A stretch of 64,000 nt of DNA, from positions 33 to 64,032 of the forward strand of contig CAZEAE010000015.1 in the NCBI GenBank assembly GCA_964510095.1, read 5' to 3'. This stretch comes from an uncultured Elusimicrobia bacterium. GTDB lineage: Bacteria > Elusimicrobiota > Elusimicrobia > UBA1565 > UBA9628. The notes beneath the pieces were generated by a model. The model was not told the DNA's origin. It worked only from the letters and a program-made list of their open reading frames with translations, and did not search any database. Shown in pieces: positions 20,863-57,657 of the stretch (position 1 is the stretch's first letter; each line of letters starts with the position of its first letter). Position numbers and translations under genes: made by a program.

Positions 20863-20923
20863 TAGGCCTTTGGGCCTATTTTCATCTAGGCCTAATGCCC
20901 GCCCTGAAGTAGGCCCTCGGACC
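20863..20923. promoter_or_regulatory. GG(N)CC-pair motif cluster A
   Basis: taggcctttgggccta (20863-20878), taggccta, aggccc and ggacc within 60 bp of a divergent intergenic region. Confidence 0.5.
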
Positions 20924-20992
20924 TTACCGAAATGCCCGCCCAACTGTTTTACTGCTTCTTACCGGTGCCATCATAGGCACCAGAGAGGCCCC

Positions 20993-22231
20993 ATGACAAA
21001 GCTCATCGCCGCCGCACTGGCTTTACTGATCCCCGCAGCGCCCGTTTTTGCGCAGCACAATCGCGAGGGGCGTCAGCCAGGGCATCAACAGCCCGGCCGC
21101 CAGCAACCGCCGCGAAAAGAACCGCCCCGCCGAGAACCCCCGCGCCAAGAGCCGCCTCGCCGTGAACCGCCTCGCCGGGAGCCCCCGCGCCATGAGCCGC
21201 CTCGCCGTGAACCACCCCGCCGAGAACCCCCGCGACAACAACCCCCGCGCCGCACCCCTCCGCAGCGACGACCACCGGTCATCATCCCCGGAAACCCCGG
21301 CCAGCGACCGGGGCAGGGCGGACGCGTTCTTCCCCGCCGGCCGAACCCGCTCGAAGACCACCGCCGCGTGGACAGCGACCACGGGCGGTCTCAGATCGGA
21401 CGCCCGACCCACGGCTGGGACGGACGCCAGATCTCTCATCAGCCCCATCGCGGCACACCGAACCGCGACCACATCACCATCATCAACAACACGACGGTGA
21501 TCAACAACATCCATAACCACAATCGCTACGAGACCGTCCGCGGCCAGTACTACTGGCATGAATACAACGGCTCGCGTTACTGCCACCAATACGACCAGTG
21601 GGGCTTCCACTGGTACGGGTGGTACCTGGGCAGCTCGTATTTCTGGGCGCGCTACCACGCCGACAACTGGTGGTGGTACGACACCTCCTACCAGCGCTGG
21701 CTATACCTCCACGAGGGCCGCTGGTGGTATCAGTCCCCGACGCGGGTGGTCTACATCTACGTCAACGAGGAGAACCGCTACTACCGATACGATGAGTCCC
21801 GGGGCGGAGTCGTCACGCGCCCGGACACGACGCCTCCGGTGACGCCGCCTCCCGCCGACCCGACCCAGCCGACGCCGCCCGCGGAGCCGGCCGAACAGTC
21901 GACCTTCTACAGCGAAGACGGGTCTCGGATGGTCCAGATCTTCGGAGACAACGACGACGGCTTCCTGTACGACACCGCCGAGACCCCGTCTTTCGAGCCG
22001 AAGTTCCTGGCCGCGGGGGTCAAGGAGGTCCAGTTCTCCACCGACAACCAGACGGGTCTGCAGATCCTCGTGATCACGGAGAAGAAAGACGAGGCAGGCA
22101 GCGTATCCAAGGGCTTCAAGCTCTTCGATGCGCAAGGCCAGCCCTACGGCGTGGAAGAGCCGGAGGAACCTAAGGCTCCGGACCCCACGCCGGCCATGGA
22201 CCAGCTCAAGGCGCTCGACGAAGGGTTCTAA
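20993..22231 (+). CDS. Secreted protein with PPRxE pentapeptide repeats and a His/Trp/Tyr-rich domain
   Basis: GAGAGG SD before ATG 20993; signal peptide MTKLIAAALALLIPAAPVFA; repeats followed by YWHEY...WGFHWYGWY...WWWYD. Confidence 0.8.
   Translation: MTKLIAAALALLIPAAPVFAQHNREGRQPGHQQPGRQQPPRKEPPRREPPRQEPPRREPPRREPPRHEPPRREPPRREPPRQQPPRRTPPQRRPPVIIPGNPGQRPGQGGRVLPRRPNPLEDHRRVDSDHGRSQIGRPTHGWDGRQISHQPHRGTPNRDHITIINNTTVINNIHNHNRYETVRGQYYWHEYNGSRYCHQYDQWGFHWYGWYLGSSYFWARYHADNWWWYDTSYQRWLYLHEGRWWYQSPTRVVYIYVNEENRYYRYDESRGGVVTRPDTTPPVTPPPADPTQPTPPAEPAEQSTFYSEDGSRMVQIFGDNDDGFLYDTAETPSFEPKFLAAGVKEVQFSTDNQTGLQILVITEKKDEAGSVSKGFKLFDAQGQPYGVEEPEEPKAPDPTPAMDQLKALDEGF
21107..21271 (+). repeat. 11 tandem 15-bp coding repeats (PPRKE/PPRRE/PPRQE/PPRHE...)
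   Basis: Units such as ccgcctcgccgtgaa vary mainly at synonymous positions. Confidence 0.9.
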
Positions 22232-22258
22232 GACGCAATATGGTAAAATAGCCGCCTG

Positions 22259-23263: not shown

Positions 23264-23290
23264 ACCGGAAAATGATAGAATGACCCCACT

Positions 23291-23854: not shown

Positions 23855-23855
23855 C

Positions 23856-25133: not shown

Positions 25134-25171
25134 CCAGCGATTATATCAGGTAACATATGGCTTGAGTGGCG

Positions 25172-25861: not shown

Positions 25862-25872
25862 CGGCGCCGGCG

Positions 25873-26580: not shown

Positions 26581-26585
26581 CCGGC

Positions 26586-27608: not shown

Positions 27609-27610
27609 GC

Positions 27611-29620
27611 CTAAGGCCAGAAGTGGACGGCGGCGGCTCCGGCGGCGGCGCCGACGGCCAGAGCCACGATGAAGCCGACGGGGCCCAGGCCGATGGCCAC
27701 GGCCAGCAGGCCGAAAAGCCCCAGCCCAAGGGAGGCGCCGGCGACGCGGTCCATCTTATCGTTGAAGCTAAGGGGGGCGGGCGCTTGCGGGCCGGTGATA
27801 TTGGGCGTCCCCGGGACCGGGGTGCTGGGCGGAGCGGGCGGCCCCGGCGGGGTCGGCGGCCTGGGACCGGGCGGCGGCAGCGGCGGGTTAGGATCGATCG
27901 GCCCCTGGCCGCGGCAGAGCTCGGCGGAACGCGACGCCTTCTCGAGCGCCGCGCCGGCCCGGACGTCCTCGGCCCGCGACTGATTGGCGGCGGCGGAGCT
28001 CTTCGCCTCCATCGTCACGAGCTGATCATAAGCCTTAGGCGTCTCGGGACTGGCGATCCGCACGCCCGAGGCCGCATGCGGGCAGTAGTATTTGAGCAGG
28101 TCCGCCTCGATGAGGTTCTTCTTAGCCAGCATCGCCGCGACGCCGGCGTCAGGAGCGTCGAGCTGGGCTTTCACCGCGGCCAGGATCCGAGGCTTCCAGC
28201 GGGCCGCGACGACGGCGGCCTGGTTCGGGTCGCCCGCGGCCTTGATGAGCTCGGCCTCCTTGGCGGCGCGGTCCGGGGCGGAGCTCAGGAGGTGCTCGAC
28301 GAAGGCCCGCTCCACAGGCTCGGAGAAGACCTTGGCGATGGCCTCGGCGATGGTCGGCGCCTTCGGGGGGATGGGCGGCTCCGGCGGCTTGGGCGCGGGG
28401 AAAAGAGTCTCGAAGGTCTGGCCGGGCTTGAGCGAGGCCGCCGCCCATTCGGGCAGCGCCGTGTCGGGCTTGCCCCCCACGTAGCTCCTGAGGTCCTTGC
28501 GGACCAGCTTGCGCAGGTGGCTCGTCATGCGCGCGCCTGCGCCCTTGTCTCCGGCCTTCTCAGCCGCGTCGGCTTCGCCCGCGATGCGCACGAGGTGCTC
28601 CCAAAGGCTGGGTTCGATCCGCTTGAGCCGCCACTGTATATAAGTCGCTTCGAAAGGGGTGAAGCGGTCGAGCGTGCGCTCGCCGGGCCCGTCCTTGGCC
28701 GGCGTCTTGAGATAGGCCTTGGCTTGCACCATGACCTTGCCCTGCCATTTCTTGACGAGGCCGTCCATCTTGGAAGGCTCGCTGTCGGCGGTCTTCTGGT
28801 CGGCCTTGAAGGCCGCCCTTTCCCGGTCGCCGGAGATGAGGTAGGTCAGGACGGCATGCTCCTGGTCGCTGAAGCGGTGGATGAAGGGCTTGCCGGCGGG
28901 CGGCGCCGGCATGTCGATATAGGTCATCTCCGCCTCGTGATAGAAGGGCATGAGACGGTTCTTATCCATGCTGACCAAGGCTTCGGCGCGGAAGGCGACC
29001 TGCGCGAACTCTTTCTTAGGATCGATCGTGCCCCAACGGACGCGGCTGCGGTAGTCGCGGGAGGCCGCCCTGATGATAGCCCGGCAATGGCGCACCTTCT
29101 GCTGAAGCAGGTAGTGCTCCTCGGGGCTGCGCGGCACGGTGATCTCGATCCATTCCCGCTTGAACCTCTCGAAAACCGGCTCCGGCGCCCAGCGCAGGTA
29201 GCTGACGATCAGGTCGGACTCGTAATCGCTGAGCTTTTCCTTGTCGCCGGCGCCGCCGGCGGAGGCGCGCCAATACTCGTCGACCGCCGGCTTGTAGGTG
29301 CGGCGCATCTCGAAGCCGAAGAACTCGCCGGCGCCGTACTGCCACCAAGGCAGCTTCTTGATCATCAGCTGCGTCCAGTTGTATTCCTTCCAGGCCTTAT
29401 CGTGCTTGGCCTTGCGTTCGAAAGGGTAGCCGGTCCTGGGCTTCGGGTCGGAGCCTTTGACCATGATCAGGTCGAGCAGGGAATGCTCGAAGAGGTTTTG
29501 ATGCCGATTGAGTTTCTGAGCGGAGTTGGGCTTGTCCGTGCCGTAGAGGAAATCGTTGTCGGCCGCCCTCAGCGGGGAGGTGGAGCAGGCCAGCAGGAGC
29601 AAGGCAAGCAGGTATCTGAT
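27611..29620 (-). CDS. Large secreted hypothetical protein with Pro-rich linker and C-terminal hydrophobic hairpin
   Basis: Long ORF with high-GC codon bias. The signal peptide (I)RYLLALLLLACSTSPLRA is complete only if translation starts at ATC 29620; otherwise the start is TTG 29602. Confidence 0.75.
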   Translation of the reverse strand: MRYLLALLLLACSTSPLRAADNDFLYGTDKPNSAQKLNRHQNLFEHSLLDLIMVKGSDPKPRTGYPFERKAKHDKAWKEYNWTQLMIKKLPWWQYGAGEFFGFEMRRTYKPAVDEYWRASAGGAGDKEKLSDYESDLIVSYLRWAPEPVFERFKREWIEITVPRSPEEHYLLQQKVRHCRAIIRAASRDYRSRVRWGTIDPKKEFAQVAFRAEALVSMDKNRLMPFYHEAEMTYIDMPAPPAGKPFIHRFSDQEHAVLTYLISGDRERAAFKADQKTADSEPSKMDGLVKKWQGKVMVQAKAYLKTPAKDGPGERTLDRFTPFEATYIQWRLKRIEPSLWEHLVRIAGEADAAEKAGDKGAGARMTSHLRKLVRKDLRSYVGGKPDTALPEWAAASLKPGQTFETLFPAPKPPEPPIPPKAPTIAEAIAKVFSEPVERAFVEHLLSSAPDRAAKEAELIKAAGDPNQAAVVAARWKPRILAAVKAQLDAPDAGVAAMLAKKNLIEADLLKYYCPHAASGVRIASPETPKAYDQLVTMEAKSSAAANQSRAEDVRAGAALEKASRSAELCRGQGPIDPNPPLPPPGPRPPTPPGPPAPPSTPVPGTPNITGPQAPAPLSFNDKMDRVAGASLGLGLFGLLAVAIGLGPVGFIVALAVGAAAGAAAVHFWP

Positions 29621-29636
29621 GTCCCTATTATAACCC

Positions 29637-29694
29637 GGGGCCGATCATTGCGCCTGGGCCAAAGGCCCCCGCCGCGAATAGGCCCAAAGGCCTA
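29637..29694. promoter_or_regulatory. GG(N)CC-pair motif cluster B
   Basis: gggccaaaggccc and taggcccaaaggccta; the latter is the exact reverse complement of 20863-20878. Confidence 0.5.
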
Positions 29695-30195
29695 CGGCGC
29701 CGCGGCCAGCTTTCTCCACGCCGAGCGGAGCTCCTCGGGCCGCAGCGCCGACAGATGGTGCTTGAAGCGTATCGTCCCGGCCCCATCGACGATATAGAGG
29801 TTGCGCAGCGGGCAGGTCCCCGGCGGGTGCTTCTGCCCAAGACGCAGCGCGACGACGTCGTCGGGATCGAGAAGGATCGGGAAGCCGCACTCGCGCGCGA
29901 CCTGCCCAGGCAGCGGGTCGTCGACAGCCAAGATGCTTACCGCCAGCACGCGCAGGAGCCCGGGGGACTCGCCCAGGAGCTCCCCCAGCAAAGGGATCTT
30001 CGCCCGGCAGTCCGAACAGAGGTTCGTCAGCCAAAGCACCGTATACGCCCCGGACTTCCCTTGATAAAGCGAATGCTCTTTGCCGGCCGTGTCGCGCAGG
30101 GTGAAATCAGGGAAGCACCCGCCCAGTTCCGTTCCAGGATGGAACAGCGCGCGCAAGGGCCAGAGCAGCCGCCACAACCGGATCGAGGCACTCAT
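29692..30195 (-). CDS. Redoxin/AhpC-TSA-type thioredoxin-fold protein
   Basis: PDFTLRDTAG, CSDC motif, FPILLDPD and IVDGAGTIRF. Confidence 0.82.
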   Translation of the reverse strand: MSASIRLWRLLWPLRALFHPGTELGGCFPDFTLRDTAGKEHSLYQGKSGAYTVLWLTNLCSDCRAKIPLLGELLGESPGLLRVLAVSILAVDDPLPGQVARECGFPILLDPDDVVALRLGQKHPPGTCPLRNLYIVDGAGTIRFKHHLSALRPEELRSAWRKLAAAP

Positions 30196-30228
30196 GAGGT
30201 AATTGAACTAGATTTTTGCGAACCGCGC

Positions 30229-30254: not shown

Positions 30255-30267
30255 TCACTTAAACACC

Positions 30268-31293: not shown

Positions 31294-31297
31294 GCCG

Positions 31298-33137: not shown

Positions 33138-33167
33138 TTGACATATACACTAATTGTCTGTTATATA
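33138..33167 (+). promoter_or_regulatory. Strong sigma70-like promoter of the AbiE module
   Basis: TTGACA-N18-TATATA with an extended -10 TG, in an AT-rich spacer. Confidence 0.65.
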
Positions 33168-33201
33168 TATAAGCAGCTGCCCGGATGGCAGCCCCCGGCT
33201 T

Positions 33202-44280: not shown

Positions 44281-44306
44281 GCGAGCGCTATTCTAGCTTT
44301 TTTTGC

Positions 44307-45212: not shown

Positions 45213-45251
45213 TTGTGCCCCTATTTTACAGCGAAGTGCCCAGCAAGAACA

Positions 45252-45290
45252 GGGTCCTAGGACCTAGGGGCGGCTAGGCCCTTTGGCCCA
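45252..45290. promoter_or_regulatory. GG(N)CC-pair motif cluster C
   Basis: Perfect palindrome ggtcctaggacc (45253-45264) plus taggccctttggccca. Confidence 0.5.
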
Positions 45291-45297
45291 CGGCAAT

Positions 45298-45326
45298 AAT
45301 TGCAATAATTGAAGGCCTGACCCCGA
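45298..45326. repeat. 29-bp dispersed intergenic repeat, copy 2
   Basis: Identical to 17062-17090. Confidence 0.85.
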
Positions 45327-45327
45327 A

Positions 45328-48300
45328 TCAGTCGCCGGACCAGGGGTTGAAGCGGCCGCCCTTGACCGGAGCGGCGTCGCAGAGCGCCTTGTAGCGCTCG
45401 ATCTGATCGTCCGCGGCGCCGTCCTTGACCAGGCTGGAGAGCGTCATCGAGTAGCTCATGTTGTACTCGGTGGAGGACCAGATGCCGCCCTTGGAGGCGG
45501 CCACCGACTTGGCGGCGGCTTCGATGCGGCTGTCGGCCACGGGGCGGCCTTGGGAGGAGAGGCGCGTCGAGATCTGATAGTTCCGGCCCGAGGCGCTGGG
45601 CAGGGGCGGCAGGTTCTTGCCGTATTCCCCGTCGGCGGCCTTCATCTGCTCGACCGAGGAGAAGACCATGTCGATCCAAGGCCAGGAGCCTTCGTGGCTG
45701 AAGGAGACGGAGATCACGCCGGAGATCTCCTTCAAACGCGTGGCATGCTCGGCTTCGAAAGCCTTGTTCTCGGCGGCCACGGCCTCAATCGACATCTGCT
45801 TGGCCACGTAGTAAGCCTTGCCGTCCAACCCGCTGATCTGAGACGGCGCCGCCTTCATCGCGGCGCGGTCGCTGAAGGTCACCGTCACGCGCCGGGAGGC
45901 CACGACGACCGACTCAGCCCCCATGATCGCCTCGCCTTTCGCTTTGGCGTCGGCGTCCAGCTGCTCCGGGGAATACTTCGCCGCCTTGGCTTTGGCGGGC
46001 TTGCGCACCATGCTGGACATCCCGCCGAGCCTCAGGGCTTTCTTCACCTTCTCCATGAGGGTCTGGCCCTGATCCTGGGCCGGGACCTTCAGGGCCTGCG
46101 CCTCTCCGGTGCGGGCATTGACCTCGACCGCGCCGCCGTTATCATCATAGAAGCGGAACCACAGGTCGTCGCCCTCGGTCTTCTTGACCATCTCCAAAGA
46201 GACGCTGACGCGGGAAGACAGCCACGGGAAGGCTTTCTGCGCGATGGTCAGCGCGGGCTCCGGCAGCATCACCGCGCCGCGGCTGAACAGATAGGGAGAC
46301 ATCGGGAAGAGCATCAGGTCGCTACGGACCGGGGCGCTTCGGTAGACCTGGGTCCTGGCGTTGAACTTGCCCGTGCCGGTGACGGGGCCGCGCGAGAAGT
46401 CCACGGAGATGATGTCGGCCGAGGCGGCTTTAGGGGAATCCATCACGTAAAAGGAGAACTTCCAATGGTCGCCATCGCGCAGCGGCATGGAGGCGGTGGC
46501 CTGGGCGTACATGAGCTTGGCGCCCGGCTTGCCCATCGCCTCGGCGGCGGCAACGGCCTCGTAATAGGCCCGCTCGAAGAGCTGACCAGCGGGGGCCAGC
46601 GTCTCGCGCGGGCGCATCATCCCAGCCATGCCGACCATGCCCGCCATGCCCATCATCTGGAAAAGGTCCTCGATGCCGTGCGGGCCGAAGTACGGCATGC
46701 CCTCGGGGAGCACCGGCCCGGTGACATTGCCGGTGGCGACGTCGGTGAGGACCCGGAAGAGCGTGTAGTAGCCGACCGCGCCGCCGGCGAGCAGGGCGAC
46801 GAAAGCCAGCGCCGACTCCAGCTTGCTCGGTTCCTTATATACGTCAGCTTTGACGGAGTAGGCGGCCATCGCGTCCAAGATGATCTTGGAGGCCGCGGCG
46901 CCTTTGCCCGGCATCACATACCCGTTCTTCATCCTCGGGTCGGCCGTGCCGCCCACGCTCAGGGAAAGCATCCCGGGCAGGCCCTTCTCCATGTTGCGGT
47001 CGGTCTCATTGCCGGTCAGAGGCATCGGATTGCCGCTGAGGCGCTCGCCCACCCTCTTGGCCTTGGCCTCGACTTTCGACAGCTCCCCCTCTTTATGCCG
47101 GGGCATGTACATGCTGTCGCCGATGGCGACCGCCTCGTCGGCAGTCATGCCCAGGGCCTTGGCGATGTAGGCCACCGAGACCGACTTGTCGAGCTTCGAG
47201 AACATGATGTACGGCGGCTTCTTCAGGTCCTTGGCCATGCGCGGGATGACTTCGGCCTCGTAGTGAAGGGCGTCGAGTTCTTTCTGGAGCAGTCCGGCCG
47301 CTTCCTTGACCTTGGCTTCCGGCGTCCCGGGGACGAACATCATCGCGTAGCCGTAGGGGTTGTAGCTCTCGGCGGGGTCCTTCGGAGTCTCGGTGTTCTG
47401 CGTGACGCCGATGGAGGGCAGCAGGGCCTTGGTGGCCTCGGCGGCCGACCTGATGATCGCGACCTGGTCCTCGGGCAGCGCCGGCGCCTCCCAGACCTTC
47501 TGCGGTTCACCCTGGGCGTCATAGCGGTAGACGCGTCCGCCGGAATTGGCGGCCACGTACATGCCGGCGCGGTCCGCCGCGGGGATCGACGCCAGCGACT
47601 CGAACACCGTCAGCGTCTCGGAGTTCGGACGCTTGACGTCGGGACGGTCGGTGATGACGACGACTTCCTTGCCGTTCTTGCGCACGGCGGCGACGGCGGC
47701 GGCCATCTCGGGGGTGAGCACGGAGTTGTGCGGACCGATCGTGTCGTCGAAGTCGGAGAAGATCACCTTCTTGGCGGCCGCCTGGGCGACGACCTTGGCC
47801 GCCAGCTTCGGACCGACGACCGGCATGCTGATGACCAGGCCGTAGACGGCGGCGATGCCCGCCAGCGCGCGGCGGCGGAATCCGTAAGAGCCGGCGCCGT
47901 CGACCGGCTTGGGGCCGTTCTGCTGCGAAGCGGCGGGCGCGGCGGGAGTCTCCGCCGTCTTTTCCGACGTGGCCGCAGCGGCGGCTTTGGAGAGTCCCGA
48001 GCCGCTGGGCTCGGCGGAAGGGGCGCTGACCGAGACTTCCCCGGCGGCCGCGGCGGCGGCTTTCCCCGTGATGAGGTCTTCGATGCGGCGGCCGGAGGCC
48101 GCGGAATCAGCAGCGCCGGCTTGAGGCTGGGCGATGGCCGAGATCTCAGGCGCGATGGCTTGAGAAAGGCCCTCGATGGCAAGAGGGCCGCCCAGGGCGG
48201 CGGGACTGACGGCCGGGGCAGCGGGTGCGGCGGTGGGGATAAGAGACGGAAGAGCGAGGGTCGGAGCCAGCGACATGCCGGGGACCAGGCCGGCGATGGG

Positions 48301-48465
48301 CGCGATCCGGACGGCGGGCGCGGCGGATATGGGGGCCTGGATGATCGGCGCGGCTTTGAAGGCGGCGGCGACGGCTTCGTGGCAAAGAGGTCCGGGCGAA
48401 AGCCAAACGAGCAGGGCGGCGAGGGCGGCGGCGACTCGGCGGCGCATCGATGAGGCCTGGATCAT
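45328..48465 (-). CDS. Large signal-peptide protein with Ala/Pro-rich spacer, HAD-IIB hydrolase domain, TM helix and unknown C-terminal domains
   Basis: GGAGG SD before ATG 48465; HAD motifs IFSDFDDT, VITDR, DKSVSV and AIGDS; PepSY-like VEVNARTGE. Confidence 0.8.
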   Translation of the reverse strand: MIQASSMRRRVAAALAALLVWLSPGPLCHEAVAAAFKAAPIIQAPISAAPAVRIAPIAGLVPGMSLAPTLALPSLIPTAAPAAPAVSPAALGGPLAIEGLSQAIAPEISAIAQPQAGAADSAASGRRIEDLITGKAAAAAAGEVSVSAPSAEPSGSGLSKAAAAATSEKTAETPAAPAASQQNGPKPVDGAGSYGFRRRALAGIAAVYGLVISMPVVGPKLAAKVVAQAAAKKVIFSDFDDTIGPHNSVLTPEMAAAVAAVRKNGKEVVVITDRPDVKRPNSETLTVFESLASIPAADRAGMYVAANSGGRVYRYDAQGEPQKVWEAPALPEDQVAIIRSAAEATKALLPSIGVTQNTETPKDPAESYNPYGYAMMFVPGTPEAKVKEAAGLLQKELDALHYEAEVIPRMAKDLKKPPYIMFSKLDKSVSVAYIAKALGMTADEAVAIGDSMYMPRHKEGELSKVEAKAKRVGERLSGNPMPLTGNETDRNMEKGLPGMLSLSVGGTADPRMKNGYVMPGKGAAASKIILDAMAAYSVKADVYKEPSKLESALAFVALLAGGAVGYYTLFRVLTDVATGNVTGPVLPEGMPYFGPHGIEDLFQMMGMAGMVGMAGMMRPRETLAPAGQLFERAYYEAVAAAEAMGKPGAKLMYAQATASMPLRDGDHWKFSFYVMDSPKAASADIISVDFSRGPVTGTGKFNARTQVYRSAPVRSDLMLFPMSPYLFSRGAVMLPEPALTIAQKAFPWLSSRVSVSLEMVKKTEGDDLWFRFYDDNGGAVEVNARTGEAQALKVPAQDQGQTLMEKVKKALRLGGMSSMVRKPAKAKAAKYSPEQLDADAKAKGEAIMGAESVVVASRRVTVTFSDRAAMKAAPSQISGLDGKAYYVAKQMSIEAVAAENKAFEAEHATRLKEISGVISVSFSHEGSWPWIDMVFSSVEQMKAADGEYGKNLPPLPSASGRNYQISTRLSSQGRPVADSRIEAAAKSVAASKGGIWSSTEYNMSYSMTLSSLVKDGAADDQIERYKALCDAAPVKGGRFNPWSGD

Positions 48466-48553
48466 GGATCCTCCCTTTGGGGCGTCTGCAGGTATTATAA
48501 GCCCCGCCGGGGCGTTTGCTCTGGGCCCTTGGGGGAAGCGCGCGAAGTTTTTT

Positions 48554-48640
48554 GGCCTAGGCCTATGGACCCATAGCGTCATAGGCCCTAAGGCCCATGG
48601 CAGGGCCAAAGGGCCCACCTACAATAGGCCTATCGGTCCT
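48554..48640. promoter_or_regulatory. GG(N)CC-pair motif cluster D
   Basis: About nine GGCC/GGACC/GGTCC cores within 87 bp of a divergent intergenic region, including ggcctaggcc and gggccaaagggccc. Confidence 0.55.
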
Positions 48641-48648
48641 GGAGGTCT

Positions 48649-49875
<1,227 letters not shown>

Positions 49876-49881
49876 AGCCGG

Positions 49882-52800
49882 TCAGCGCGGGGAGGCGGAC
49901 GCGGCGGGCGCGGGCGCCGTCTTCAGGATCTTGCCGAGGGCCTCTTCAAGCCGCGCCGCCGTTTCCTTGTATGTCGCCAGGTCGCTGCCGTAAGGGTCTC
50001 CGATGTCCCCGCCTCCCGTCTCGGCGTAGCCGTTGAGGGTATGGACCTTGCCGCGAGCTTGAGGGTAGCGTTCCAGTATCTGCGCGACGTGGCCGCCGGT
50101 CATGCCGAGGATGACGTCCGCGCCCTCGATATCCTGCCGGGTCAGCCCCTGCGCCTGGTGGCCCTGGGCGTCGATGCCGTAGCCCTGCAGCGCCTCCAAG
50201 GCCGGTCCCGGCATGGCCTGCCCCGGATACGCCGATAAGCCTCGCGAGGAGGTCTCGAAGCCCTCCGAGACCATGCCCTTGGCCAGATACTCGGCCATGG
50301 CGCTGCGGCAGGTATTGCCGGTGCAGACGAAAAGCAGCTTCTTCGCCTTCGGTTTGGCGGCGGCGACGGGAGCCGAGGCTTCGGCGTTCTTGGTCACCGG
50401 CCGCGACTGCAGGATATAGAGCTTGTCGCCGACGAACCCCCATTCCAGGTCGAGAGCATAGCCGAAGTGGCGCTCGAGGGCGACGGCCACCGTGTTGAGG
50501 AGCTCGAGCTGCTTGGGCGACAGCGACCGGGCCCGCCTGCGCTCGGGAGCCATGCGCTTCTCGGCGACGCCTTTGCCCGAGACGTCGCGGACGATGGCGA
50601 GCTTCTTGTCCGAGATCATCGCGGGCAGGATCTCGCGGCCGAGCTTCTTGGAGACGACGTACTGGTCCGGGGCCACGCGGCCGGAGACGATGCCCTCCCC
50701 CAGGCCGAAGGCGGCGTTGACGATCAGGCGCGCCGTGTTGCCGGAGACCGGATCCTGCGTGAAGGCCACGCCGGAGACCTCGGAGGGCGCCATCATCTGG
50801 ATGACGACGGCCTGGTTCAGGTTGGACAGGCTCAAGCCCTTGGTCTGCCGGTAGAGCAAGGCGCGCGGGTTCCATAAAGAGGCCCAGACCTCCTTGACAT
50901 GCTCCAGCAGGACGGCGTTGTCCACGTAAAGATGGGTGTCGCCGGCGCCGGCGAACGCCGCGTCGGCGCCGTCCTCATCGACGGCGGAAGAGCGCACGGC
51001 CAAGGCTTCCTTATCCAAGCCTTCCCGGCGCACGGCTTTGAGGATCTCCCGGCCGACGCCCTTGGAAGCGGACAGCTCGGCGCGCAAGACAAGCTGGCGG
51101 ATGCGCGAAGACCTTTCCTCGATGGACAGGCCGCTCTGCGCGCCGATGGCGTCGATCTGGGTCTCGATGCCCGCCTCCTTAAGGAACGAACGGTAAGCGG
51201 AGATGGTCAGGGCCACGCCGGGCGGCACCGAGCCTCCGGCTTTGCGCACGACCTGCATGATCTCGCCGAGCTTGGAAGCCTTGCCCCCCACCCAAGGGAC
51301 GTCCAGGTCGAGGACCTCCGCCAGGGACAAGACGGCGGGGACCTTCGCGCGCCTGGAGGCCAGCCGCATCTGCTCCAAGCGCTCCACCTGCGCCTCCCAT
51401 TCGCGGTAATAGCTGGGGGCCAGCTTGCGCCGCTTGGCCTTGGCGATGAGGGCCTTGATGCGCGGCAGGACCTCCAAGGTCACGGACGGGTGGTCGTGGG
51501 CATGGCGCTCGAGCTCGGCGATATCCTGCTTGATAAGGGTCTCGGCGCGTTCCTTAGCGGCCGCGTTCAGGGATTGATAGGTGTGCGAGGCGGTCTTGAA
51601 CTCGGCGGCGTCGCGCTGGAGGGCCAGCGCCAGCTCCTGCAAACGGTTCTGACGGCCGGCGGCGCCGAGCACGGCGCGTTCGACGGCTTCGATGGAATCG
51701 GTCTCGCGCAAGACCTCCATGGCCTCGCGGTGCTGGGCGTAGGCGGAGCGCGCCTCGGCCGTGAAAAGGTCGGTCTCGGTCTGCGCGATCCAGGCCTGCA
51801 TGCCGCCGACCGAGGAGGCCTGCAAGACCTGACGGGTGCGCTCGAGCTCGAAAGCGGTCTCCGGCCGGCCCGCGGTCCGAGAGACGAGCTCGGAGAGGAC
51901 CTCGCGGGCGAAGGCCAGCTTCTGCAGCGAGCCCAGCGCGGGGCCATCCACGGCCGCCTCCACGGCGCGGCTCACGGCGCCGGGCTTAGGGTCGCCGTCG
52001 TAGCGCTCGAGGAGCTCGCTGACGGCGAGCATGCTCTCCTGCGACGCGGCGGGGAAAGCCTCCAGCTTGCCGGAGACCGGGTCGAGGCGGACGACGGCGC
52101 CTTCCGGCAGGCGGACCCTCCGCGAGGAAGAGACGGCGCGCACCGCCAGCCCCCGGACCCGCCGCGGATCCTTGAACTCAGCCGCCTCGAGGCTCAAAGC
52201 CCCGTCCTCCCAGGCCGCCTGGCTCAAGATCAAGGCGCTGATGCCCATCTCTCGGGTGGTGATGGCGGCATGGCTGAGCAGGCCGCCGGAGGTGGTGACG
52301 ACGGCGCGGGAGTTGCGGATGGGGCCCAAGTCGTCGGGCGTGGTATAAGGGGCGACGAAGATGTAGCCGCCCTTGGCCGCCTTTTCCTTGTCATAGGTGA
52401 TCCGCGCCGTGATCGTCCGGCCGGGGCCGGGGCTGGCGGCCAAGCCGCTGAAGAGCCGGCCCACCGACAAGGAGATCATGGGCTCCGCCTTGAGCTTGCG
52501 CAGCATGAGCCCCCCTCCCGCGGGCGTGTCCGACGGGGAGAAGGCGGCGACGGGATGCCCCTGCTGGGCGAGGCGGTGGAAGAGGGCCTCGGGCGGCAGG
52601 GTCCGAGGCGAAAGCCCCATCTCAAGGGTCCCGATCTCGGCGCGGGCCAGTCCGACCTGGCCGGTCTGGGGGTCGCGCAGGACGTAGAGGTTGAGCCATT
52701 TGTCGGAATCGACGCGACGCTGGGCGCGCTCCAGGGTCAGCGTGCCGATGGAGCCTATCGCTTGGAAGTCGAAGAGCCCGGGGTCCAACGAGCCGACGGC

Positions 52801-55476
52801 TTCGGCCATGCGGCCGGCGGCGACGTGGCTCTCGGTGAAGAATTCGGCCAGGTTGGCGAGCGGATCGTAGTCCCGGTTCCGGGCCAGGCCGCCTTCGGGC
52901 AGGACGCGGACCTCGCCGCGGGCGATGGCGCGCTCGATGGGTCCGTTGAAGTGCTTGTCGACGGCGCGCTGGCCGAGCAGCCCGTCGGGCAAGGGCGGAA
53001 GGCCGAGGTTCGTCAGGGTCTTCGAGAGGCCGGCCTGAAGCCGCGCGCGCTTGGAGGCCTCGCGCTGGTAATCATTGAAGCCCGCGACCATCTTGTCGTG
53101 CTGGTCGTGGACGTAGAAAGGCAGGTTGCCCTCGGCCAAGGCGATGTCGACCCAGGCGTCGATGCGCCGAGCGCTCTCCTCCGAGGTGGTCGAGCCCTCG
53201 AGTATGATGGGCAGGGCGAAGTCGACGCCCACGGTGGAATGCAGGGCCTGGATGACCAGGGAAAAGTTGTCCATCATGCGGTCGACGCTCTGGGATTGAT
53301 GGTCCTTGTCGACGATGGCGGTGAGGAAGCCGTTGTCCTCCTCCACGGCGAAGCCGAGCTTCCTCAGGAAGGAGGCGACGTAGTAGAGGCGCGACTGGTT
53401 GGCGAGGCTGGTGCCCCACTCCTGATAGCGCACGCGCAGCATGCCGCCTTCGTCGGGCGGCAGGAAATTGGAGTAGACCTCGGCGCTGTGGGCGCCGAGC
53501 TGGAAGTGTCCCCAGAATTGGTGGTCCTGCATGATGAGCGAACCGTTAGGGGTGTCATGAGCGTCGCTCAAGGCGTGGACCAGGGCCTTGAGGCCCGGAG
53601 AGACGATGCGGCCGGCCTTGGTCAAAGGGTCGTTGGAAAGGTCGACGAGGGAGATCTCCTTGACGCTGTCTCCTTTCCGGAGCTGAAGGACCATGTTGGC
53701 CGGAGAGCTGTCCTGAGAGCGGCCGACGCTTTCCAGGGCCTTCTGGTGGATGACGTTGATATAGCGGTGCAGGGACTCCTTGTCGATGGGCACGACGAGG
53801 GCGACGGCCTTGGCGGGCAGGAGCTCGGAGTCGGCTAGGCCCTTGGCCAGGGCGTCGATCTTAGCCGAGACGGCGTCGACGCCCTTGGCCAGCTCGGCGG
53901 CGTCGTCTTCGGATTCAGCGAGCGCCTGATAGGCGGCGGCCATGGCTTTGACGTTGGCGGCGATGGCGCGGGCGTTCTTGACGGTCATGTGGGTGGAGTT
54001 CTGCGCGACGAGCTCGAGGGCGGCGAAGTTGGCCTCGATCAAGCGGTTGAAGGTGTCGAAGCGCCGGCGCAAGCCGGCGATGGAGTCCTCGGTCCCGCCG
54101 CGGGCGACCTTGACGGTGACGGCCTGGTCGGAGTCGAGATGGGCGGCGAAGCCTTCCGGCGCGCCGTGGGACAAGCGGTAGCCCAGGGCGCGGCGGACGA
54201 CCTTGCGCGGGGCGCGGACGACGAGGGCGGAAGGATCCTCCTCGACCTGCTTCCTGAGAGAGGCGAGGAGCTTGGGGTCGGCCTCGACGCCGAGGGCGGG
54301 GCTCCGGCGGACGCGCAGGCCGAAGAGCTCCTTCCACCAGTCCTTGCTGGTGGCGGCCTCATAGAACCTTTGCCAGGAGTCGGCGAGGGAGTCGAGCGTG
54401 TTCTGCCAGGACTTCTGCAGAAGGGTCTTGAAGGGTACGGGCGGTAAGGATCGGACGGCCTTGGGGAAAGCGGCCTCGAGGATCCGCTTGCCGGCGGGAT
54501 CGAAGACGGTGCGCAGCTCGACCTTGAAGCCGGAGGCGGCGACAGGGTCGACCTTGGCCTGGGCGTTGATGATGACGAAGGTCTTCTGGACGGCGGAAAG
54601 GTCGGTGAAGGCGGGCTGGCCGCTGTAGAGCAGGCTTTCGTTCCAGAACTTCATGGCCGAGAAGACGGGGGCCTTGGCCTCGGAAGTGAGAAGCCCGAGC
54701 TGGGCCTTTATAAGGGTATGGCGCAGGAGGTCCTGCATCGCATCGGGGCTGCGGGCGGCCAGGCTGGACTTGAGGTCCTTGATGGCGGCGGGCAGCTGGC
54801 GCTTCTCGGCCTCGGCGGCGGCTTGGCGGTAGAGCGCGGGGGCGTCAAGCTCGTCGGCGTCTTCGTAGGCCTCGGAGAGCTTTTGGACGGCGGGGCTGAC
54901 GTAGGGAGCGAGGGCGGATTTCTTGAAAGCGCCGGTCTTGGCGGCGCCGACGAGGTCGTCGCCGGCGGGTTTGAGCTTGGTGACGTCGAAGATGGAGTTG
55001 AGGGCAGCGGCGACTTGGCCGGAGGCGCCTTTCTCTTCGGCTTTTTGAGCGGCGCCGAGGTTATCGACGGCCTGGCCGAGGCCGCTGAACGCGGCGGGCG
55101 CTTTCTCGAGGGGCGCGGGCGTTGCGGCTTGGTCGGCAGGGGCGGCCTTGGCGGCTTCGGCGCTGGGGATGGCGCTGGGAAGCGATTGCGGCTGGACCTG
55201 GGCGGGGCCGGAGAGGCCGGCGGCGCCTTGAGCGGCGGGAGCAAGGTCGAGGGCGGGCGCCCCCTGGATGGGGCTGATCCCTCCTCTAAGATCGAGGGAG
55301 AGCTGACCGCCGGTGGAGAGGTTGGAGCCGGGGGCGGCTTTGATCGTGCCGGCTTGTCCCGCTTGCCCTTGTCCGGCGCCTTCGACCTTGGGGACGCTGA
55401 TGTCGACGGCCTGGGCCGAAGCGGCCCAGGCGGAGACCAGGACCGCGGCTAGGAGCCGCCGTCGATAGAAGGGCAT
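49882..55476 (-). CDS. 1864-aa signal-peptide protein: Ala/Pro spacer, unknown domains, PEP-utilizer phospho-His domain, PPDK-type ATP-grasp domain, C-terminal LMW phosphatase
   Basis: TTSGGLLSHAAITTREMG; VGGKASKLGE, AVRSSAVDEDG..AAFAG, GLGEGIVSG, DLEWG...ILQSRPVT; FVCTGNTCRSAMAE and DPYG. Confidence 0.88.
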   Translation of the reverse strand: MPFYRRRLLAAVLVSAWAASAQAVDISVPKVEGAGQGQAGQAGTIKAAPGSNLSTGGQLSLDLRGGISPIQGAPALDLAPAAQGAAGLSGPAQVQPQSLPSAIPSAEAAKAAPADQAATPAPLEKAPAAFSGLGQAVDNLGAAQKAEEKGASGQVAAALNSIFDVTKLKPAGDDLVGAAKTGAFKKSALAPYVSPAVQKLSEAYEDADELDAPALYRQAAAEAEKRQLPAAIKDLKSSLAARSPDAMQDLLRHTLIKAQLGLLTSEAKAPVFSAMKFWNESLLYSGQPAFTDLSAVQKTFVIINAQAKVDPVAASGFKVELRTVFDPAGKRILEAAFPKAVRSLPPVPFKTLLQKSWQNTLDSLADSWQRFYEAATSKDWWKELFGLRVRRSPALGVEADPKLLASLRKQVEEDPSALVVRAPRKVVRRALGYRLSHGAPEGFAAHLDSDQAVTVKVARGGTEDSIAGLRRRFDTFNRLIEANFAALELVAQNSTHMTVKNARAIAANVKAMAAAYQALAESEDDAAELAKGVDAVSAKIDALAKGLADSELLPAKAVALVVPIDKESLHRYINVIHQKALESVGRSQDSSPANMVLQLRKGDSVKEISLVDLSNDPLTKAGRIVSPGLKALVHALSDAHDTPNGSLIMQDHQFWGHFQLGAHSAEVYSNFLPPDEGGMLRVRYQEWGTSLANQSRLYYVASFLRKLGFAVEEDNGFLTAIVDKDHQSQSVDRMMDNFSLVIQALHSTVGVDFALPIILEGSTTSEESARRIDAWVDIALAEGNLPFYVHDQHDKMVAGFNDYQREASKRARLQAGLSKTLTNLGLPPLPDGLLGQRAVDKHFNGPIERAIARGEVRVLPEGGLARNRDYDPLANLAEFFTESHVAAGRMAEAVGSLDPGLFDFQAIGSIGTLTLERAQRRVDSDKWLNLYVLRDPQTGQVGLARAEIGTLEMGLSPRTLPPEALFHRLAQQGHPVAAFSPSDTPAGGGLMLRKLKAEPMISLSVGRLFSGLAASPGPGRTITARITYDKEKAAKGGYIFVAPYTTPDDLGPIRNSRAVVTTSGGLLSHAAITTREMGISALILSQAAWEDGALSLEAAEFKDPRRVRGLAVRAVSSSRRVRLPEGAVVRLDPVSGKLEAFPAASQESMLAVSELLERYDGDPKPGAVSRAVEAAVDGPALGSLQKLAFAREVLSELVSRTAGRPETAFELERTRQVLQASSVGGMQAWIAQTETDLFTAEARSAYAQHREAMEVLRETDSIEAVERAVLGAAGRQNRLQELALALQRDAAEFKTASHTYQSLNAAAKERAETLIKQDIAELERHAHDHPSVTLEVLPRIKALIAKAKRRKLAPSYYREWEAQVERLEQMRLASRRAKVPAVLSLAEVLDLDVPWVGGKASKLGEIMQVVRKAGGSVPPGVALTISAYRSFLKEAGIETQIDAIGAQSGLSIEERSSRIRQLVLRAELSASKGVGREILKAVRREGLDKEALAVRSSAVDEDGADAAFAGAGDTHLYVDNAVLLEHVKEVWASLWNPRALLYRQTKGLSLSNLNQAVVIQMMAPSEVSGVAFTQDPVSGNTARLIVNAAFGLGEGIVSGRVAPDQYVVSKKLGREILPAMISDKKLAIVRDVSGKGVAEKRMAPERRRARSLSPKQLELLNTVAVALERHFGYALDLEWGFVGDKLYILQSRPVTKNAEASAPVAAAKPKAKKLLFVCTGNTCRSAMAEYLAKGMVSEGFETSSRGLSAYPGQAMPGPALEALQGYGIDAQGHQAQGLTRQDIEGADVILGMTGGHVAQILERYPQARGKVHTLNGYAETGGGDIGDPYGSDLATYKETAARLEEALGKILKTAPAPAASASPR

Positions 55477-55573
55477 GTTCGAAGTATAAGGCCGGAAGCG
55501 TCATCTGTCCAGGGGTTTTTGAGGGTTGAGCAGCCCCCATAAAACGAGCGATAATCAGCGATGAATCGGGGCC

Positions 55574-55602
55574 TTGACATAATCCATTACACATGGTATA
55601 CA
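55574..55602 (+). promoter_or_regulatory. Sigma70-like promoter of the RHH-RelE TA pair
   Basis: TTGACA-N17-TATACA with an extended TG; TACAC direct repeats lie 11 bp apart over the -10 region. Confidence 0.6.
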
Positions 55603-55620
55603 CACTAAGAGGGGCGCCAT

Positions 55621-55854
55621 ATGACAAGGGTCCAGATATTGCTCGATAAGAAAGAGGTTCAGGCCCTCCGCCGTGAGGCCGCACAGAGCGGCAAGAGCTA
55701 TTCCCTGCTCGTGCGCGAGGCCATCGACAATCTCTATGTTTCGCGCTTTTCTGATGGCGAGATCTCAGGGATGGCCAAGGCCGCCAAACAGGGGAAGGGG
55801 ACCCGAAGATTCAAGGATCTGCAAGACGCCCGCCGCCACCTCTGGTCGCTTTAG
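55621..55854 (+). CDS. Ribbon-helix-helix (CopG-like) antitoxin
   Basis: MTRVQILLD...LRREA...SYSLLVREAID pattern; 77 aa; lies upstream of a RelE-like gene. Confidence 0.8.
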   Translation: MTRVQILLDKKEVQALRREAAQSGKSYSLLVREAIDNLYVSRFSDGEISGMAKAAKQGKGTRRFKDLQDARRHLWSL

Positions 55855-55869
55855 CACAGCCCCCCCGGC

Positions 55870-56151
55870 ATGCTCGAATTCGCTTTTGCCCAGAGCTTTC
55901 AGAGGAGCTTGAAGGGCCTGCATCCGCCGGAGAAAGTGGCCATTCAGCGGCGCGTGGACTCATTCATGCTGGCCATGGACGTGCGGAGGATCCCCACCGG
56001 TTTCGGCCTCAAGAAGCTCGGCGACGATCTCTGGGAGTTCCGCACGGATCTCCCTATCCGCGTTTTTTTCCAGTGGAGCAAGAACACAGTCACCTTCTTG
56101 TTTCTCGGCAACCACAACGAGGTTCAACGGTTTTTAAAGCATTACGTGTAG
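55870..56151 (+). CDS. RelE/ParE-superfamily toxin
   Basis: 93 aa; F..SF.RSLK.L, LKKL..DLWEFR...IRVFF and LGNHNEV. Confidence 0.78.
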   Translation: MLEFAFAQSFQRSLKGLHPPEKVAIQRRVDSFMLAMDVRRIPTGFGLKKLGDDLWEFRTDLPIRVFFQWSKNTVTFLFLGNHNEVQRFLKHYV

Positions 56152-56179
56152 GGCTGACATCGGCTGGAGACTCAGCGAT

Positions 56180-57601
56180 ATGAACGGAGAAACAAAGCGG
56201 CTCGACCGCCGGTTCGCCGTCTATCCTCTCGGCCTGCTCCTCTTCGGAGCGGCGCTGTGGCTCATACTCTCGGTCGGCACGGCCGGACAGCCGGACCTGT
56301 CCGCTCCGGCCGCCGCCGCGACCGCGGCTCCAAGCAGCTTGAGCGCGGAGCTGTATAAGAACCCGCGCAGCCCGCTCGGTGTTTTACTGCTTCAGATCCT
56401 GGTCATCATCGCCCTCACCCGCTGCTGCGCGAAAGTCATGCGGAAATTCAGCCAGCCCGAGGTCATCGGCGAAGTCATCGGCGGGATACTCCTAGGCCCC
56501 TCCGTGCTGGGCTATCTCTGGCCCGCCGCCGGGATCTTGCTGTTTCCGCCGGCTTCCCTGGCGAATCTGGGCCTATTGAGCCAGATCGGATTGATCGTCT
56601 TCATGTTCGTCGTCGGGATGGAGCTGGACACCGATGTCCTGGCGAAAAAGGCGCATTCGGCCGTGCTGATATCCCATGCGAGCATCATCCTGCCCTTCCT
56701 GCTCGGCTCGCTGCTGGCGCTCGCCCTTTATAAAAGTCACGCCCCGGCCGGAGTCCCCTTCACGCCGTTCTGCCTTTTCATGGGCATCGCGATGAGCATC
56801 ACGGCGTTCCCCGTCTTGGCCAGGATCCTCCAAGAGCGCGGCATGAGCCGCTCCCCCCTAGGGACCGTCGCGCTCACCTGTGCGGCGGTCGACGACTTGA
56901 CCGCCTGGTGCGCGCTGGCCGTGGTGGCGGCCGTCTCACGGCAGGGCACGCTCGCCGACTCCATGATCGCGGCCGCGCTCTGCGGCCTGCACATCGCGGC
57001 GATGCTCTTCGTGGTCCGGCCCGCGCTGGGCCGATGGCTGGAGGGGCGCGCCGCCGAGGAGTCTCGCGGCAAGGGGGCCGTCGCGGCCGTCTTGTTCACG
57101 GCGTTCTTCTCCGCTTTCATGACGGAGGCCATCGGGATCCACGCGCTCTTCGGAGCCTTTCTGGCGGGCATCGTCATACCCAAGAAGACGGCCTTCCGCG
57201 AGGCTCTCGCGGTGCGCCTCGAGAGCTTCAGCACGATCATCCTGCTGCCGCTCTTCTTCGCCCTCAGCGGCCTTCGCACCCAGATCAGCCTGCTCGACGA
57301 TCGGGCCTCGTGGGTCCTCTGCGGAGTCGTCATCCTCGTGGCGATCACCGGGAAGCTCGTGGGCAGCGCCGCCGCGGCGCGCTGGTCCGGCTCATCGTGG
57401 CGCGAGTCGCTGGCGATCGGAGCGTTGATGAACACGCGAGGGCTCGTCGAGCTCGTCGCCCTCAACATCGGCTACGACCTCGGCATCATCAGCCCGGCGA
57501 TATTCACGATGATGGTCCTCATGGCGCTGGCCACGACGCTGATGACGGGCCCCTTGCTGAGCCTCCTCGTGCCGGACGCGCGTCCCAAGGTTTCCCGCTA
57601 G
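56180..57601 (+). CDS. Cation:proton antiporter (CPA2 family)
   Basis: QPEVIGEVIGGILLGPS, SITAFPVLARIL, AAVDD and MNTRGLVEL motifs. Confidence 0.93.
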   Translation: MNGETKRLDRRFAVYPLGLLLFGAALWLILSVGTAGQPDLSAPAAAATAAPSSLSAELYKNPRSPLGVLLLQILVIIALTRCCAKVMRKFSQPEVIGEVIGGILLGPSVLGYLWPAAGILLFPPASLANLGLLSQIGLIVFMFVVGMELDTDVLAKKAHSAVLISHASIILPFLLGSLLALALYKSHAPAGVPFTPFCLFMGIAMSITAFPVLARILQERGMSRSPLGTVALTCAAVDDLTAWCALAVVAAVSRQGTLADSMIAAALCGLHIAAMLFVVRPALGRWLEGRAAEESRGKGAVAAVLFTAFFSAFMTEAIGIHALFGAFLAGIVIPKKTAFREALAVRLESFSTIILLPLFFALSGLRTQISLLDDRASWVLCGVVILVAITGKLVGSAAAARWSGSSWRESLAIGALMNTRGLVELVALNIGYDLGIISPAIFTMMVLMALATTLMTGPLLSLLVPDARPKVSR

Positions 57602-57657
57602 GCCAGCCCCAGTTGGCCCCCAGGCCCAGGTCCTTCCGCCTCCCTGGACCTAGGTCC
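57601..57657. promoter_or_regulatory. GG(N)CC-pair motif cluster E
   Basis: ggcc, ggcccc, ggcccaggtcc and the perfect palindrome ggacctaggtcc (57646-57657). Confidence 0.45.

Follow-up and report, generated by a model that had tools for sequence, protein, structure and literature searches.

What are the clusters of paired GGCC-like sequences that recur between genes in a stretch of DNA from an uncultured Elusimicrobia bacterium, and what might read them? The stretch (contig CAZEAE010000015.1 of assembly GCA_964510095.1, positions 33 to 64,032; hereafter the window, 64,000 nucleotides (nt) in full, numbered from its first letter) has a GC content of 65% and holds five such clusters, at 20863-20923, 29637-29694, 45252-45290, 48554-48640 and 57601-57657. 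A sequence-only reading had placed all five in intergenic DNA, 5′ of genes for exported proteins, and had proposed that they are either operators of a regulon controlling the secretome or arrays of methyltransferase targets acting as an epigenetic switch, adding that no standard feature class describes them. The clusters are indeed intergenic at these coordinates and lie 5′ of genes with signal-peptide-like starts (20993, 29620/29602, 45212, 48465, 48649 and 57723); the remark on feature class was wrong, as arrays of transcription-factor binding sites in activator-type promoters form such a class. It is argued here that the clusters are probably operator arrays of a dimeric transcription factor at sigma-70-type promoters, which together would make up an exoproteome regulon. 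The arrays are notable for their conservation in many lineages of the phylum and for targets defined by export. The intergenic regions are:

20813-20992: between a DUF255 thioredoxin-like gene (reverse strand) and the gene of a Pro-rich signal-peptide protein (forward strand)
29603-29691: from an AhpC/TSA stop codon to a lipoprotein-like orphan of 663 amino acids (aa)
45213-45327: flanked by the genes of two signal-peptide proteins, one of 1045 aa and one an orphan of 301 aa
48466-48648: between the divergent genes of the 1045-aa protein (45328-48465) and an S8 peptidase
57602-57722: a Na/H exchanger gene on one side, the gene of a 113-aa signal-peptide orphan on the other

A palindromic unit in fixed register with core promoters

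At the GC content of the window, counting bare GGCC (974 copies) or GG(N)CC pairs proved uninformative, with pattern densities confounded by base composition, and was rejected, as was a generic palindrome census, in which GC-rich coding palindromes swamped the signal. The 16-mer TAGGCCCAAAGGCCTA, which had been reported in two opposite orientations, occurs exactly at 20863-20878 (reverse strand) and 29679-29694 (forward strand), and a search allowing up to three mismatches returned five matches against 0.38 expected, every one of them within the clusters. Both 12-base-pair (bp) palindromes listed earlier are present (ggtcctaggacc at 45253-45264 and ggacctaggtcc at 57646-57657). The clusters had been described as GGCC/GGWCC cores separated by TA or AAA/TTT; the cores are there, but they are the surface view of a 16-bp dyad-symmetric unit, T-R-G-G-n-C-Y-w-w-n-G-n-C-C-Y-W, repeated with a period of 24 bp. 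Written as the IUPAC pattern TRGGNCNNNNGNCCYW, this unit gave 15 matches in the window compared with 1.28 expected, a count reached in none of 100 shuffles, and 14 of the 15 fall within 20863-20925, 29679-29694, 45251-45290 and 48558-48617. A weight matrix derived from other species only gave 11 window matches of at least 14 bits, in four clusters, against 0.42 in dinucleotide shuffles, and pairs of such matches 24 ± 1 nt apart were found three times in the window and never in 100 shuffles. The four clusters at 20863, 29655, 45251 and 48558 stand far above chance, whereas the fifth (57601-57657) reaches only about 9.4 bits, which is background, and holds only a left and a right half-site, each close to its expected place. 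No match of at least 14 bits was present in the respiratory and fatty-acid-synthesis promoters or in the region upstream of 55476, as the earlier reading had maintained, nor in the 8 kb of contig beyond the window. The sites, their core promoters and the genes that follow are listed below (P1 to P5; +, forward strand; -, reverse strand).

20863-20878, +: P1 distal unit, TAGGCCTTTGGGCCTA, the exact 16-mer, matrix score 15.5 bits
20887-20902, +: P1 middle unit, TAGGCCTAATGCCCGC, 24 nt after the distal unit, fitting the consensus except in its last two bases
20910-20925, +: P1 proximal unit, TAGGCCCTCGGACCTT, matching both matrix and IUPAC pattern
20925-20953, +: P1 core promoter, -35 TACCGA (20925-20930), 17-nt spacer, -10 TTTACT (20948-20953)
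20993-22231, +: P1 target, gene of the Pro-rich signal-peptide protein
29679-29694, -: P2 distal unit, TAGGCCTTTGGGCCTA, whose final three bases double as the TAG stop of the AhpC/TSA gene 29692-30195
29655-29670, -: P2 proximal unit, GGGGGCCTTTGGCCCA, 24 nt from the distal unit
29627-29655, -: P2 core promoter, -35 AGGCGC (29655-29650), 17-nt spacer, -10 TATAAT (29632-29627)
29620 (ATC, 6 nt past the -10) or 29602 (TTG), -: start of the P2 target, the lipoprotein-like gene
45275-45290, -: P3 distal unit, TGGGCCAAAGGGCCTA
45251-45266, -: P3 proximal unit, TAGGTCCTAGGACCCT, which includes a 12-bp palindrome, 18.6 bits
45223-45251, -: P3 core promoter, -35 TGTTCT (45251-45246), 17-nt spacer, -10 TAAAAT (45228-45223)
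44307-45212, -: P3 target, gene of the 301-aa signal-peptide protein
48558-48573, +: P4 distal unit, TAGGCCTATGGACCCA
48582-48597, +: P4 proximal unit, TAGGCCCTAAGGCCCA, kept in the aligned regions of L026, L064 and L078
48602-48617, -: P4 third unit, TGGGCCCTTTGGCCCT, within the -35/-10 spacer, 18.6 bits, conserved in four species
48597-48625, +: P4 core promoter, -35 ATGGCA (48597-48602), 17-nt spacer, -10 TACAAT (48620-48625)
48649-49875, +: P4 target, the S8 peptidase gene
48625-48640, +: extra unit, TAGGCCTATCGGTCCT, past the P4 -10 in the 5′ leader of the S8 gene, 14.8 bits
48494-48537, -: promoter of gene 45328-48465, with a right-half-only unit TTCCCCCAAGGGCCCA (48537-48522), a 22-nt gap and -10 TATAAT (48499-48494); the site is weak, its left half-site lacking GG
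57646-57716, +: P5, weak, with half-sites TAGGTCC (57651-57657) and GACCCT (57683-57688), -10 TATACT (57711-57716), about 9.4-9.7 bits, background
57723-58064, +: P5 target, ATG 6 nt past the -10, predicted leaderless

The spread of the site was followed by scanning for the exact 16-mer in one genome per species (185,579 species), the matches being studied as 8-kb blocks. There were 114 matching blocks, 63 of which (about 50 genomes) are labelled Elusimicrobia or Elusimicrobiota and have GC contents between 41% (gut Elusimicrobium) and 73% (groundwater lineages); seven further blocks, unlabelled or oddly labelled, have the same surroundings as the Elusimicrobia blocks, and the remainder are single matches scattered across many phyla. 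Near-copies with one to three mismatches are rare besides the selected exact copies (13 in 460 kb of Elusimicrobia blocks), on which ground the 16-mer was rejected as a high-copy repeat; it is the best version of a degenerate site. The window, which matches a contig of a Hainich groundwater metagenome (ENA ERZ1292639), is itself a member of this phylum: the groundwater Elusimicrobia genome behind block L026 is syntenic with it from 45.3 to 61.9 kb, at 52-63% protein identity, and blocks L064 and L078 encode S8 peptidases 59-61% identical to that of the window. When the S8 upstream regions of the four species were aligned (S8 proteins with 52-61% identity to that of the window), conservation was seen in the units and the -10 but not in the linkers, the third unit in the spacer being kept in the window and all three blocks. 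At the orthologous AhpC locus in L101 no 16-mer was found at the same place. One block carrying an Eggerthellaceae label (L091, CAVHDF010000004.1) shows the arrangement of the Elusimicrobia blocks, with a proximal unit 9 nt past the exact 16-mer; it is probably a mis-binned Elusimicrobium contig, and the motif may serve to flag other contigs of this kind.

Across the Elusimicrobia blocks, GG(N)CC half-sites are phased around the 16-mer and a second unit starts 9 nt past the first, giving the 24-bp period. Hexamers resembling a -10 element (TAnnnT) peak 45-46 nt past the 16-mer, which is 22 nt past the proximal unit, and no such peak appeared in 43 non-Elusimicrobia control blocks. The full layout of distal unit, 8 nt, proximal unit, -35, spacer of 17-18 nt and -10 is seen at 56 of 69 sites, with a proximal-unit consensus of T-R-G-G-n-C-Y-w-w-n-G-n-C-C-C-T (56 proximal units) whose last T is the first base of TTGnnn at the -35 position, so that the core promoters read TTGnnn-17/18-TAnnnT. 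Away from the seeds, matrix matches in the same blocks again come as two units, and -10-like hexamers peak there at +22 and +46. In an independent metagenome sample, a pattern of two units that carried no -10 information matched at least 120 loci; among the sites listed, 67 of 126 show a -10-like hexamer between +21 and +23, with a mode at 22 nt (44 sites) over a background of about 2-3 per offset. The -10 peaks are thereby seen in three independent samples. Within the window, the gap between proximal unit and -10 is exactly 22 nt in all four strong promoters. An ATG lies 5-9 nt past the -10 in about 24 of 57 promoters, which indicates that these transcripts would be leaderless and fixes both the assignment of the -10 and the predicted transcription start; counting from a -10 that spans -12 to -7, the unit centres fall near -42.5 and -66.5.

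The 663-aa orphan behind P2 illustrates the choice of start codon at such promoters: its canonical lipoprotein signal peptide, MRYLLALLLLAC, requires a start at ATC 29620, 6 nt past TATAAT, where related promoters have leaderless ATGs, and gene callers chose TTG 29602. The sequence at 29618-29632 (reverse strand) is identical in a second assembly (L003, 650-670).

The composition of the unit bears directly on the epigenetic switch. Many half-sites do include GGNCC or GGCC, and methylation-sensitive regulators with clustered targets are known, such as Dam/GATC at pap and agn43. Completion of GGNCC or GGCC depends, however, on unit positions that vary: among 56 sites position 7 has C 27 times and T 24 times, and position 10 accepts any base. 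The conserved T1, R2 and T/A16 fall outside the target, and a methyltransferase target array is disfavoured for these reasons. GGCC is not avoided in the window, as its copy number shows, no methyltransferase gene was seen there, and restriction-modification specificities are normally strain-variable, whereas about 50 genomes share the present site. The view of the clusters as arrays of GGCC/GGNCC methyltransferase targets is considered very improbable.

A palindrome may also be maintained as a hairpin, and the clusters could in principle be terminator-like structures, repetitive extragenic palindromic (REP)-like elements in RNA or DNA, or a small mobile palindromic repeat. Each unit could form a stem of 5-6 bp, the clusters at 29679, 45275 and 57599 lie directly 3′ of the stop codon of a co-directional gene, and RNA folding gave z-scores of -1.3 to -2.9; these scores are weak, though, and come from inconsistent folds that pair a unit with another unit and not within itself. 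The variable arm positions show no covariation, their complementarity being no higher than chance (19 complementary against 16.8 expected for positions 5/12, 11 against 13.3 for 7/10 and 22 against 26.3 for 2/15), so that the palindrome is best seen as two conserved half-sites (TRGGnC) of the symmetric-dimer type and not as a maintained stem. No T-run, and hence no U-tract of an intrinsic terminator, follows any unit in the window, gut species have a separate canonical terminator directly upstream of the array, and no Rfam family matched at the gathering threshold or at E up to 1. The units keep register with the downstream -10 and not with the upstream stop codon and, being upstream of the -35, are not part of the regulated transcript. 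REP elements and bacterial interspersed mosaic elements (BIMEs) resemble the clusters as short GC-rich palindromes grouped between genes, at times just past stop codons, but here the arms do not covary, copy number is modest, the register with the downstream promoter is fixed and conservation of one sequence extends over a phylum and is not confined to a species. The hairpin or terminator explanation is largely refuted, and its chance of being correct is negligible.

Exported proteins downstream of the sites

The proposal that the clusters are operators of a secretome regulon is supported by these results, namely the fixed -10 distance and a dyad symmetry without covariation, and from the signal-peptide genes found downstream in the window and in dozens of Elusimicrobia. 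The downstream proteins fall into 39 unrelated families among 56, including Peptidase_S8, Peptidase_M14, metallo-beta-lactamase-fold (Lactamase_B), SLT lytic transglycosylase and Endonuclease_1 (endonuclease I) members as well as several orphans. Signal-peptide-like N-termini were recognized in 45 of 57 by a loose rule and in 39 of 57 by a strict rule, and among the misses a signal peptide can mostly be seen by eye, the start codon having been wrongly chosen. A first heuristic, which accepted 56-65% of control open reading frames (ORFs), was too lenient and was replaced by the stricter rule and a within-block control. In low-GC blocks, in which ORF calling is reliable, 25 of 29 ORFs with an upstream motif were signal-peptide-like compared with 38 of 97 without one (Fisher p = 1.2e-5), the control rule being deliberately generous. 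In the metagenome sample, 46 of the 59 downstream proteins listed were signal-peptide-like. Overall, signal-peptide proteins account for about 80-88% of the genes downstream.

Outside the seeded clusters, sites occur at about 3.4 per 100 kb over a background of about 0.9, and the window holds four clusters in 64 kb; a rough extrapolation from these figures would give a regulon of about 50-200 promoters per genome. In L026, one good unit and a degenerate second one (5794-5850) are followed by TATAAT upstream of a FabH-like gene, so that the regulon may extend beyond exported proteins; the orthologous promoter of the window is without units.

Activation, repression and candidate readers

The -35 hexamers of the motif promoters in the window (TACCGA, AGGCGC, TGTTCT and ATGGCA) are poor, whereas motif-free promoters of the window have TGGACA (upstream of 55476), TTGACA (40877) and TTGACG (20812). 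In this small sample the weak -35 that marks class II-like activator promoters is present, and across species only TTG of the -35 is conserved. Weak -35 hexamers together with a register held to ±1 bp favour an activator contacting RNA polymerase in a class II/III manner, and activation is accordingly the favoured mode within the operator-array explanation. The anatomy of the sites, their fixed distance to the -10, their conservation between species, the absence of arm covariation and the link to signal peptides are direct observations; from them we infer protein binding, activation and a factor family along the following lines. A putative dimeric helix-turn-helix transcription factor would bind both 16-bp sites and recruit RNA polymerase to promoters with poor -35 hexamers (class II/III-type activation), the array being joined to a sigma-70-type core promoter through the last base of the proximal site, which is also the first base of the -35. 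This promoter class, common to many Elusimicrobiota lineages, would drive the genes of signal-peptide proteins as an exoproteome regulon.

Several points weigh against operator arrays of this kind. Transcription starts are deduced from the -10 and the leaderless ATGs, signal-peptide calls are heuristic and not those of SignalP, and the background rate of such calls in the blocks is high (39% under the generous rule). The Elusimicrobia data consist of 8-kb blocks around a motif match and not of whole genomes, and the estimate of regulon size, at about 2.5 extra clusters per 100 kb, is rough. A spacing of 24 bp (about 2.3 helical turns) places neighbouring dimers on different faces of the DNA, an arrangement unusual for cooperative activators. 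No obvious regulator lies in the window or the 8 kb beyond it, besides an RHH/toxin-antitoxin-like pair and AbiEi. Finally, S8 promoters have a third full site in the -35/-10 spacer, and in about 27% of promoters a half-site lies between -27 and -25, both positions typical of repression.

On account of the last two features, repression or dual control is kept as the main rival. The same sites would then be repressor operators, a dimer array over -74 to -35, and sometimes the spacer, silencing exoprotein genes until a signal arrives. The conservation of the S8 spacer unit in four species and the spacer half-sites would suit such a role, as would the unit past the -10 at 48625-48640 and the overlap of the proximal unit with the first base of the -35. 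Most promoters, however, are without a site over the -10 or spacer, operators rarely hold a ±1-bp register with the -10 over dozens of unrelated promoters and species, and a poor -35 in motif promoters next to good ones in motif-free neighbours is the usual sign of activator dependence. Repression is considered unlikely. At P4, the third unit may be an auto-limiting or repressing site through which the same factor exerts negative feedback.

The fixed register with -35 and -10, and a layout conserved across genomes of 41-73% GC, could alternatively reflect elements read by RNA polymerase itself, through a phylum-specific alpha C-terminal domain (UP-like) or an alternative sigma factor, with no separate regulator. 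Known UP subsites are A/T-rich and lie near -42 and -52, and two 16-bp dyads 24 bp apart are unlike them; the -10 and spacer are of the housekeeping sigma-70 type; and the units occur in a subset of promoters, the respiratory, fatty-acid-synthesis and other promoters of the window having a TTGACA-like -35 and no units. Direct reading by the polymerase is judged improbable, clearly more so than repression.

The 16-bp geometry of the sites fits helix-turn-helix dimers of both the CRP/FNR and the GerE (LuxR/NarL) type. The similarity to CRP/FNR class II/III promoters includes a dyad with a 16-bp core and key G/C positions 9 bp apart (G4 and C13, as in TGTGA-N6-TCACA), a site over the -35 centred at about -41.5/-42.5, a second upstream site and a weak -35. 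The half-site TRGGnC differs, and to our knowledge matches no described CRP/FNR member; the distal site lies 24 bp upstream, at about -66.5, and not at the usual -61.5 or -71.5. In the LuxR/NarL/FixJ family, the lux box is centred at -42.5, the ComA box reads TTGCGG-N4-CCGCAA, NarL binds 7-2-7 sites and the GerE core is TRGGY. Features in common are palindromes of 16-20 bp, a 6-4-6 or 7-2-7 arrangement and activation at about -42.5 and -65, and the half-site TRGGY is presumably equivalent to the GerE core, the ComA box having the same 6-4-6 form. DegU, of the same family, controls degradative exoenzymes in Bacillus. No GerE-domain regulator was found beside the motif in any Elusimicrobia-labelled block, and this link is one of analogy.

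A search of the window genes with Pfam found no transcription factor other than RHH_1 and AbiEi, and phmmer searches of all ORFs of the blocks with CRP, FNR, NarL, GerE, TetR, MarR, LexA, OmpR and Fur found no regulator that consistently adjoins the sites in Elusimicrobia blocks. Four CRP/FNR family members were detected among the block ORFs with the E. coli CRP and FNR queries, none consistently beside a site; the CRP/FNR-like ORF of L010, with a unit near its 3′ end, was not taken as evidence of linkage, and the NarL-like matches beside the L020 seed were set aside as receiver-only proteins without a DNA-binding domain. Among the metagenome matches listed, four loci of two types, none labelled Elusimicrobia, have a NarL-type response regulator directly upstream of tandem units, which in one type precede Flp-pilin genes; NarL-type regulators adjoining similar sites were seen in Flp-pilus or signalling loci and nowhere else among these matches. 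A homologue of this regulator (at least 80% identity, thousands of environmental sequences) occurs in a tad/flp locus with TadA, TadB, TadC and a histidine kinase, where the regulator is followed by TGGGCCCAGGGGTCCCA, 8 nt, TGGGACCTCCGGCCCC and the Flp-pilin gene. A highly conserved pair of HisKA_3 kinase and NarL-type regulator is found in the tad/flp pilus locus of the metagenome loci L198 (2100-2790), L129 (1-800), L241 (4640-4840), L194 and L233 (about 70% GC), with tandem TGGGnCC...GGnCCCA palindromes before the Flp-pilin genes. These loci are possibly a sister system to the Elusimicrobia motif, and by analogy GerE-type regulators are plausible readers of such palindromes.

Two other systems invite comparison. 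In Deinococcus, the radiation/desiccation response motif (RDRM) bound by DdrO is a clade-wide palindromic regulon motif that acts as a repressor operator for DNA-damage genes, with no fixed -35 register; it resembles the present site in that one palindrome is conserved over a deep lineage with a coherent regulon, and differs in that the Elusimicrobia sites stand in fixed register and the targets are exported proteins. The sigma-54 element (-24 GG/-12 GC, TGGCAC-N5-TTGC) was absent from the motif core promoters, which are of the sigma-70 type, but the two systems are alike in that their targets are largely proteins of the envelope and exterior. Sigma-54 and its enhancer-binding proteins have been proposed as the controller of the bacterial exterior, and Elusimicrobium minutum was listed among the diderms without sigma-54 and its activators (Francke et al. 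2011, PMC3162934).

A broader suggestion is that the motif marks a lineage-specific master regulator of the exoproteome, one dimeric factor that would bind tandem TRGGnC palindromes at -42.5 and -66.5 and co-activate about 50-200 promoters per genome, nearly all of signal-peptide proteins and many leaderless. In a lineage reported, at least for Elusimicrobium minutum, to be without sigma-54, it would fill the place that sigma-54 or extracytoplasmic function (ECF) sigma factors have for the cell exterior in other diderms, with the site in the S8 core promoter providing negative feedback. This wider view is tentative, and somewhat more likely to fail than to hold. Full-text literature searches found no description of the motif or the regulon, and very little has been learned about how genes are regulated in Elusimicrobiota, which are common in groundwater, guts and termites but have few cultured members. 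One scannable promoter signature would permit the co-regulated secretome, orphans included, to be predicted from sequence in hundreds of metagenome-assembled genomes, and its leaderless transcripts would help to correct gene starts; the 40-bp tandem site could serve as bait for the regulator from Elusimicrobium minutum. A binding site nearly identical from 41% to 73% GC is rare among bacterial transcription factors, and a regulon set mainly by protein destination and not by pathway is uncommon.

Other features of the window

The C-terminal part of the P1 target (20993-22231) is 37% identical to a metallo-beta-lactamase-fold protein downstream of the motif in L012, and at 21060-21282 the gene contains at least 11 copies of a 15-nt tandem repeat encoding five residues rich in Pro, Arg and Glu. 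The 301-aa orphan of P3 likewise has internal repeats, with at least five tandem copies of 96 nt (32 residues) at 44383-44907. A giant ORF of more than 2,750 aa (3-8261), which runs off the start of the window, contains tandem domain repeats of about 264 and 528 nt in 7-10 copies that are 60-88% identical.

A fusion protein of 1864 aa (49882-55511) joins PPDK_N, PEP-utilizers and low-molecular-weight phosphatase domains behind what looks like an N-terminal signal peptide. A strong promoter without the motif (TGGACA-17-TATACT) precedes the gene, whose ATG lies 6 nt past the -10, and is predicted to yield a leaderless transcript. Toxin-antitoxin-like pairs are found at 33154-34601 (AbiEii followed by an AbiEi_4-like gene) and at 55621-56151 (an RHH_1 protein, then a 93-aa orphan). 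A tandem pair of FabH-like (ACP_syn_III) paralogues, about 70% identical in DNA, occupies 59102-61109 within a fatty-acid/polyketide-like cluster (FabA, KAS, acyltransferase, ACPS and malonyl transferase) that runs past the end of the window.

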